From the IMG/VR virus record IMGVR_UViG_2974673286_000001, positions 89,269 through 153,268 of that record: a stretch of 64,000 nucleotides of DNA; one strand, given 5' to 3'. Position numbers and translations under genes: made by a program. Positions 3,082 through 4,027 of the stretch are shown piece by piece; positions within the stretch are counted from its first letter, which is position 1; every line of letters begins with the position of its first letter. Origin of the DNA: a virus. Taxonomy: Duplodnaviria; Caudoviricetes. Under the pieces are notes generated by a model. That model saw nothing but the letters and a program-made list of their open reading frames with translations. It searched no databases and was not told the origin of the DNA.

Positions 3082-3257
3082 AGTACCTTATATTGCAGGA
3101 GAACATGGTTGATGATGATGGGATTGTTATTTTCGAGGCGGATATTCCTTATGCAGTAGAATATGAAAGTATAATGAATGAAAATGAAGTAGAAGTTCTT
3201 TTGGAAGAGATATGGGTAGACTATACAATATTTCATACCGTACAGGAGGAGATTTAA
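3078..3257 (+). CDS. Small acidic hypothetical protein (59 aa)
   Basis: GTG start with [19 protein letters not shown]...; stop overlaps next ATG (TAATG). Confidence 0.65.
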
Positions 3258-4027
3258 TGTTACACACTACGCAGATTAGGATGGTGGGAACAGGATCGGC
3301 GTTCTCGAAAAAGTTTTATAATAACAGCGCTTTAGTTACATTCACAAATGGCTACAACTTACTTATTGACTGCGGACACTCTGTACCGAAAGGTCTTCAT
3401 GACGCAGACATCCCGTTAGAAAGTATTGATGGTATCCTTATCACTCATACGCATGCAGACCACATCGGAGGCTTAGAAGAAGTAGCCTTGTATAATAAAT
3501 TCGTTTTAGGTGGAAGAAAAATTGATCTCCTCGTACCAAATACGCTAGTAGAATCCTTATGGGAGAATAGCTTAAAAGGTGGACTTCGTTATTCAGATAC
3601 GTATGATGATCTTAGTTTAAGTGATTATTTCACGGTCCGCAGCTTAAAAACGTTTACCTCGGGGGCAGCCCGCACACAACTTGAAGAGAATATAGCTATC
3701 AAACTATACCCCACATTCCATGTTTCGCATATGGCTAGTTATGCTGTAGGGCTAGAGGATCGTGGAGAGGATAAGGTATTCTATTCCTCAGACACTATAT
3801 TTGACGAATACCTCATTGACTATGCTCTAACCTACTCGTGGGTCTTTCACGACTGCCAGTTTTTCACTGGAGGGGTACATGCTAGTCTAGATGAGCTTCT
3901 TAACTATATTCCTGAAGAGGATCAAGACCGAGTGTTCCTCATGCACTATGGAGACAACATGGAAGACTTCTTTACTAAAACAGGTCGGATGAGGTTTGCG
4001 TTGCAAGGACGGACATACATTCTTTAA
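3257..4027 (+). CDS. apyc1: Anti-Pycsar protein Apyc1, MBL-fold cCMP/cUMP phosphodiesterase
   Basis: [31 protein letters not shown] (HxHxDH), YSSDT, FHDCQ, VHA, LMHYGD; AGGAGG RBS before ATG 3257; matches my recollection of Bacillus phage Apyc1. Confidence 0.9.

Follow-up and report, generated by a model that had tools for sequence, protein, structure and literature searches.

Analysis of a 64,000-nucleotide stretch of phage DNA (positions 89269-153268 of the 153,268-bp IMG/VR virus record IMGVR_UViG_2974673286_000001; hereafter the window) identified the gene listed as apyc1 in the table below, with a probability that we put at about 93%, as coding for a cyclic mononucleotide (cNMP)-destroying anti-Pycsar enzyme of a large SPO1-like Bacillus subtilis phage (Herelleviridae, Bastillevirinae-type). 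The protein is already known: it is the same as the chain crystallised in the founding Apyc1 paper of 2022. By analogy with its characterised relatives, this exact protein would hydrolyse cNMPs and the phage would need it on hosts carrying Pycsar. The closest other records were Nitunavirus phages of B. subtilis (Grass and the SBSphiJ family), with about 90% nucleotide identity across the apyc1 region.

A sequence search of the PDB matched the window protein to chain 7T28_A at 256 of 256 residues (E = 8.4e-175, 582 bits). Entry 7T28, which carries the name 'Putative metal-dependent hydrolase', holds the structure of 'Bsp38 Apyc1', solved by crystallography at 2.7 A (Hobbs et al. 2022, Nature 605:522, PMC9117128). 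The window product is the same protein over all 256 residues, and thus has the same fold, dimer and active site. The next matches were two Paenibacillus Apyc1 chains, 7U2S (197 bits, 3.3e-57) and 7U2R (171 bits, 3.7e-49), whose structures come from the same paper as 7T28 (PMC9117128). Below the Apyc1 chains the scores were 53 bits for an unnamed metallo-beta-lactamase (MBL) protein, 39 for human ELAC2, 30 for chain 6KNS and 19 for the B. subtilis RNase Z, 1Y44.

Family PF23023 (Anti-Pycsar_Apyc1) matched residues 5-254 of 256 with 201.8 bits against a cut-off of 50 (E = 1.6e-59), and this was the single PF23023 match in the whole 153,268-bp record (41.75% GC). The initial annotation, made from the raw sequence, had read the gene as an anti-Pycsar Apyc1 with intact HxHxDH MBL motifs. 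Every motif that it named was found in the translation, and its reading is supported by the identity with 7T28_A, by a PF23023 score four times the cut-off and by catalytic residues at the published numbers. It had proposed a homology search against characterised Apyc1, in which best matches to RNase Z or to other MBL clades would have spoken for a different enzyme; the three best PDB matches were all Apyc1 chains, and the RNase Z and beta-lactamase models failed.

The apyc1 frame was found to be open over 256 codons up to a TAA stop at 4025-4027 (translation of 3257-4027, + strand). Its ATG overlaps the TAA stop of the preceding open reading frame (ORF), 3078-3257, in the sequence TAATG, which suggests translational coupling of apyc1 to that ORF. 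An alternative start at ATG 3212, giving a protein of 271 amino acids, was considered unlikely to be the true start because 7T28_A and the annotated homologue of phage Grass both use the ATG equivalent to that at 3257. Chain 7T28_A starts at MLHTT, and residues 1-256 of the window protein aligned to chain residues 2-257.

The motifs of the protein are GTGSAFSK at residues 11-18, HTHADH (HxHxDH) at 64-69, HDCQ at 198-201, VHA at 207-209 and MHY at 229-231. Conservation was analysed in 13 aligned phage homologues (window, SBSphiJ, J4, J6, J7, Grass, 278BB001, Goe25, Goe3, BSP14, BM-P1, 000TH009 and Mater), which were picked from 198 records with a tblastn match and span 50-88% identity. Residues D38, H41, H64, H66, D68, H69, E74, H155, D179, H198, D199, H208 and H230 were invariant in all 13. 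Five of these, H155, D179, H198, H208 and H230, we take to be metal ligands, following the motifs of MBL enzymes and RNase Z. Y112 was kept in 12 of the 13 homologues, Mater having a gap at this position. The catalytic residues published for Apyc1, H64, H66, H69, E74 and Y112, were all present in the window protein with the same numbering.

Compared with SBSphiJ Apyc1 (gene 147, the founding member of the family), the window protein showed 86.4% identity by tblastn and 88% by MAFFT, with 31 substitutions and one gap. The identity extends over the full length, and the two share the catalytic numbering and the position after nrdF and a thioredoxin gene in an operon of small ORFs. The loci differ in their small ORFs: 3078-3257 and 5185-5433 were missing from both the SBSphiJ and the Grass locus, and SBSphiJ also lacked 4386-4580. 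These variable ORFs agree with the published description of the apyc1 locus as variable and made up of small genes of unknown function (PMC9117128).

The Paenibacillus enzymes 7U2S (P. xerothermodurans) and 7U2R (P. sp. J14) aligned over the full length of the window protein and kept HxHxDH, E74, H155, D179, H198, H208 and H230. Unlike the window gene, theirs are bacterial chromosomal genes; the two proteins lack four residues at each of two places (window residues ~133-136 and ~167-170), and Y112 of the window protein was not aligned to a Tyr (phmmer).

Of eight SBSphiJ-family phages, only SBSphiJ5 (OM982672.1) gave no tblastn match to the Apyc1 protein; its record aligned to 47% of window positions 2500-5000, in three pieces. 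Judged by its sequence, SBSphiJ5 is a natural relative without apyc1, a contrast that fits the comparative-genomics route to the gene described in PMC9117128.

Public phage records describe homologues of this protein as metal-dependent hydrolase, MBL-like hydrolase, ribonuclease BN, ribonuclease Z or hypothetical protein, which bears out the claim of the initial annotation that a generic label would mask the function. The ribonuclease Z or ribonuclease BN labels, found for example in Goe25, 000TH009 and Goe7, raise the alternative that the window gene codes for an RNase Z or RNase BN that processes the 3' ends of the phage's own tRNAs. RNase Z has a flexible arm that binds tRNA. RNase Z and ELAC proteins have the N-terminal MBL core and the HxHxDH motif in common with the window protein, and the NCBIfam RNase Z models did give partial matches; only the N-terminal part aligned, however, and the scores were 5- to 20-fold under the family cut-offs (TIGR02651, residues 7-166, 57.1 bits versus 292.95; NF000801, residues 6-98, 55.4 bits versus 252). 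The solved RNase Z 1Y44 scored 18.6 bits, compared with 170-582 bits for the Apyc1 chains. The record does carry six tRNA genes (Asn, Gln, Met, Arg, Asp and Tyr), but these are located at 30968-33500 of the record, far upstream of the window and about 59 kb away from apyc1, and none lies within the window. Moreover, the structure of the identical protein has been determined and the protein assigned to the class II cNMP phosphodiesterases (PMC9117128), and a role in tRNA processing appears extremely improbable.

For a metallo-beta-lactamase that hydrolyses beta-lactams the probability is lower still, and practically negligible. The fold would suit such an enzyme, the general MBL family PF00753 matching the window protein with 60.6 bits, but the NCBIfam class B core, NF012229, reached only 17.2 bits against a cut-off of 100, and every one of its closest relatives of solved structure is a phosphodiesterase or a nuclease. 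The protein is also phage-encoded, and no sign of export turned up, although no search aimed at export was made. The NCBIfam models for RNase Z, RNase BN, beta-lactamase, lactonase and glyoxalase II all remained far under their cut-offs. The NCBIfam cyclic nucleotide-degrading phosphodiesterase NF041851, a different named family with similar chemistry, scored 23.1 bits against a cut-off of 400. Among the PADLOC defence models, only weak matches to the MBL core were obtained (LmuA, RTasMBL and Avs1a; E = 1e-5 to 2e-3, residues ~25-128), which reflect the shared fold and not membership.

An anti-Pycsar enzyme would act on the signal of the defence system. During infection, a host Pycsar cyclase would make cCMP or cUMP, a signal that would trigger a lethal effector. 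Apyc1 would open the 3',5'-cyclic phosphate, yielding 5'-CMP or 5'-UMP, so that the effector would stay off and the phage cycle could be completed. Holding the phosphate and the ribose but not the base, the enzyme would be able to hydrolyse all four cNMPs.

Published work describes Apyc1 as a homodimeric class II phosphodiesterase with two Zn2+ in the HxHxDH site, which binds the phosphate and ribose of cNMPs with few contacts to the base and converts cCMP to 5'-CMP (PMC9117128). An extended Apyc1 loop, which YhfI lacks, enters the pocket, and the legend of Extended Data Fig. 8b counts Bsp38 Apyc1 among the structures displaying this loop (PMC9117128); within the dimer, a monomer's loop projects into its partner's pocket (Tesson et al. 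2024, PMC11724313). SBSphiJ Apyc1 abolished the activation of the PycTIR NADase by cUMP, and its expression in E. coli fully rescued T5 from a Pycsar operon; H64A/H66A/H69A was the catalytically dead control, and cNMP-degrading activity arose about 30 min into SBSphiJ infection (PMC9117128). Knock-ins in SBSphiJ by Cas13a counter-selection have also been described (bioRxiv 10.1101/2025.07.12.664507). Hydrolysis of cCMP and cUMP, with relaxed base specificity, has been reported for 10 Apyc1 homologues, the enzyme of Paenibacillus sp. J14 and that of SBSphiJ both cleave all cNMPs, and the phage clades branch from bacterial ones (PMC11724313).

Could the destruction of Pycsar signals be a side effect of a broader activity? 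As a general cNMP phosphodiesterase, the enzyme would erase other cNMP signals (those of the host, of cAMP/cGMP type, or of other defences) or would feed 5'-nucleoside monophosphates to the neighbouring nucleotide metabolism. SBSphiJ Apyc1 cleaves cAMP, cGMP, cCMP and cUMP, with equal efficiency according to the legend of Fig. 2f (PMC9117128), and more than 80% of the detected Apyc1 genes sit in bacterial chromosomes, with a proposed role in regulating cNMP signalling (PMC11724313). In the window, apyc1 comes directly after nrdE, nrdF and the thioredoxin-like gene, but the hairpin at 2786-2816 and a new promoter-like site part it from the nrd unit. Expression of Apyc1 alone was sufficient to cancel Pycsar in vivo (PMC9117128), and Apyc1 neither activated nor affected Panoptes, a system that monitors cyclic dinucleotides (PMC12657218). 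The taking of cyclic pyrimidines is, furthermore, precisely what separates the Apyc1 family from YhfI-type enzymes. Chain 6KNS, presumably YhfI, aligned to window residues 21-73 only, with 29.7 bits. B. subtilis YhfI and a related MBL phosphodiesterase share with Apyc1 the MBL class II phosphodiesterase fold, the dimer and the two-zinc HxHxDH site, but strongly prefer cAMP and cGMP over cCMP and cUMP and lack the extended loop (PMC9117128). A general phosphodiesterase for which anti-Pycsar activity is incidental was judged very unlikely.

Several points nevertheless weigh against the assignment as an anti-Pycsar enzyme. According to the authors of the founding paper, Bacillus phages with apyc1 deleted had not been made at the time, so that the need for the gene in natural infection is putative (PMC9117128); the text of the same paper reports the exact Bsp38 protein as a crystal structure only, and the name 'Bsp38' has no occurrence in six source-data files of the paper. 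Given the activity on all four cNMPs and the many chromosomal members of the family, anti-Pycsar activity need not be the only role of Apyc1. The sigma-A-like promoter at the head of the operon, itself a weak call, would suggest early transcription, against the ~30 min at which activity was seen in SBSphiJ. Homologues with shortened or lengthened nucleotide-binding loops are reported to cleave cNMPs weakly or not at all (PMC11724313), and the window protein differs most from the assayed SBSphiJ enzyme directly after Y112, in 16 of 37 residues, and is one residue shorter there.

In this segment (residues 113-149) SBSphiJ Apyc1 is one residue longer than the window protein, 7U2S one residue shorter and 7U2R two residues shorter (phmmer alignments for the latter two). 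By analogy, a segment of this length should be compatible with activity, because the longer SBSphiJ enzyme and the shorter J14 enzyme, whose structure is 7U2R (PMC9117128, PMC11724313), are both reported to be active on all cNMPs.

The segment forms a divergent patch: of the 31 positions substituted between the window protein and SBSphiJ Apyc1 it held 16, where 4.5 were expected, together with the only gap. None of 100,000 permutations reached 16 substitutions in any segment of 37 residues; the bounds of the patch were set after viewing the alignment, a choice for which the scan over all 37-residue segments controls. The corresponding 111 nucleotides showed 64-68% identity to six Nitunavirus alleles, compared with 85-94% in the flanks. 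Synonymous sites in the patch were saturated, 13.7 of 18.2 differing from SBSphiJ (Nei-Gojobori), and the rest of the gene showed dS (synonymous divergence) of 0.48 and dN/dS (ratio of nonsynonymous to synonymous divergence) of 0.10 by the same method. Positive selection was rejected as the cause of the patch and sequence exchange is the simpler reading, because the synonymous sites are saturated as well; no dN/dS above 1 can be claimed. A donor was not found in the phage collection searched, which did not include the window's own record and returned 11 matches: the best, Goe-type and BvP alleles, reached ~81% identity over nucleotides 26-105 of the patch only, and its first ~25 nucleotides, coding for the residues just after Y112, fell outside all 11.

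The action of Y112 in trans would place the Apyc1-specific loop at about residues 105-125. Together with the published statement on the loop (PMC11724313), this indicates that the patch probably takes in the trans-acting substrate loop. It is possible, though we consider it unlikely, that the patch is an exchanged cassette and not the product of drift, that it retunes the loop in the partner's cNMP pocket, with alleles diversifying at the element that contacts the substrate, and that the variable small ORFs of the locus could be unrecognised anti-defence genes. If this were true, retuning of the loop could shift substrate preference or kinetics, or evade a host factor that recognises Apyc1.

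Besides naming the enzyme, the initial annotation had placed it in an operon of small genes beside the nrd genes. The order was confirmed: nrdE, nrdF and the thioredoxin-like gene are followed by small ORFs. The coordinates of these elements and of the features within apyc1 are listed in the table.

Table. Features of the apyc1 gene and its operon, in window coordinates.
Feature	Position	Strand	Description
apyc1	3257..4027	+	256-amino-acid MBL-fold class II cyclic-mononucleotide phosphodiesterase (anti-Pycsar protein 1); coordinates include the TAA stop
Shine-Dalgarno AGGAGG	3244..3249	+	read from the sequence; 7 nucleotides before the apyc1 ATG at 3257
H64-T-H66-A-D68-H69 codons	3446..3463	+	HxHxDH metal-binding motif; from the translation; invariant in 13/13 phage homologues
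E74 codon	3476..3478	+	reported catalytic (PMC9117128); invariant in 13/13 homologues
Y112 codon	3590..3592	+	reported catalytic, from the opposing protomer of the homodimer (PMC9117128); kept in 12/13 homologues
Divergent patch	3593..3703	+	residues 113-149, directly after Y112
nrdE, C-terminal part	1-1455	+	upstream of apyc1; cut by the window edge
nrdF	1564-2547	+	upstream of apyc1
Thioredoxin-like gene	2547-2783	+	upstream of apyc1
Terminator-like hairpin	2786..2816	+	ends the nrdE-nrdF-thioredoxin unit; 13 pairs, then a T run; annotated terminator at the equivalent place in Grass
Sigma-A-like promoter match	2823..2851	+	operon head; TTGACA, 17 nucleotides, TAGACT, upstream TG; consensus match only
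First operon ORF	2884..3081	+	65 amino acids from an internal ATG; phrog_24464; AGGAGG before ATG 2884
59-amino-acid ORF	3078..3257	+	GTG start; directly 5' of apyc1, putatively coupled to it; no family match (Pfam, PHROGs)
Seven tightly packed small ORFs	4043-4234, 4234-4389, 4386-4580, 4577-4795, 4798-5178, 5185-5433, 5430-5642	+	3' of apyc1; six of seven match PHROGs of unknown function
Terminator-like hairpin	5643..5673	+	ends the operon; 7-bp stem, 10-nucleotide loop, seven T; read by eye

The promoter match is weak evidence, since 17 promoter-like sites were found compared with 11.2 +/- 3.3 in shuffled sequences. The hairpin at 5643-5673 was missed by the hairpin scan, which allowed loops of at most 8 nucleotides; in phage Grass, a terminator is annotated at the corresponding position.

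None of the nine small operon ORFs had a Pfam match above cut-off, only sub-threshold noise being obtained at E <= 1, and seven of them were assigned to PHROGs without a known function. For the first ORF, which was 82% identical to the Grass locus, the phrog_24464 match spans residues 15-78 of a 79-amino-acid frame. ORF 5185-5433 (82 amino acids) matched three PHROGs of unknown function and gave an ESM Atlas lead to phage T4 Y07C (PF26894), whose score of 0.85 is under the level at which the tool offers more than a lead; for ORF 4798-5178, ESM Atlas returned clusters of 'hypothetical protein' only. ORFs 4234-4389 (51 amino acids) and 4577-4795 (72 amino acids), both on the + strand and in PHROGs of unknown function, were seen by eye to be cysteine-rich with CxxC-type spacing, and these mini-proteins may bind zinc.

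A gene of the Tad1 sponge family (122 amino acids, 12314-12682, +) was found about 8 kb 3' of apyc1, between an SSB-like gene (10915-12252) and recA (12705-13907). Its product matched the Acb2/Tad1 hairpin family PF24729 with 30.7 bits against a cut-off of 27 and PDB entry 8KBB, 'Thoeris anti-defense 1', with E = 6.8e-37, and showed 64.1% identity to an SBSphiJ7 gene annotated as Tad1. Some Tad1, Tad2 and Acb2 homologues have been described as also blocking Pycsar or CBASS (2026 review, PMC13728456).

Elsewhere in the window, genes for an RtcB RNA ligase (30608-31813, +; PF01139, 228 bits) and for a protein with a Thg1-like tRNA-His guanylyltransferase domain (42555-43283, +; PF04446, 113.5 bits) were found. 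From their sequences the two look like an RNA/tRNA repair kit, perhaps directed against host anticodon nucleases. An actin-like protein (ALP_N and MreB-like_C; 35293-36393, +) and a 744-amino-acid FtsK/SpoIIIE-family ATPase (39551-41785, +) are encoded within about 6 kb, with an M23 peptidase gene (36811-37383) between them. A 365-amino-acid protein with sigma-70 regions 2 and 4 (28399-29496, +) is presumably a phage sigma factor of the SPO1-like transcription cascade. From ~44000 to ~64000 the + strand is densely packed with about 50 small same-strand ORFs, only two of which had Pfam matches: a helix-turn-helix protein (46055-46297) and Phage_VG64 (51305-51706). SPO1-like phages typically show such an arrangement in their host-takeover or terminal region.

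The identification has no discovery value as such: the naming of Apyc1, the assays of its family and the crystallisation all date from 2022. It serves as a calibration point, since raw sequence alone was enough for a correct reading of an anti-defence enzyme whose entries in public phage records still say metal-dependent hydrolase, RNase Z or RNase BN. The divergent patch offers a cheap comparison for the control of substrate range by the loop, one natural allele having a crystal structure and the other full kinetics. For the phage itself, Apyc1 and the Tad1-family sponge, encoded within about 9 kb, amount to at least two counter-defences that target signals.

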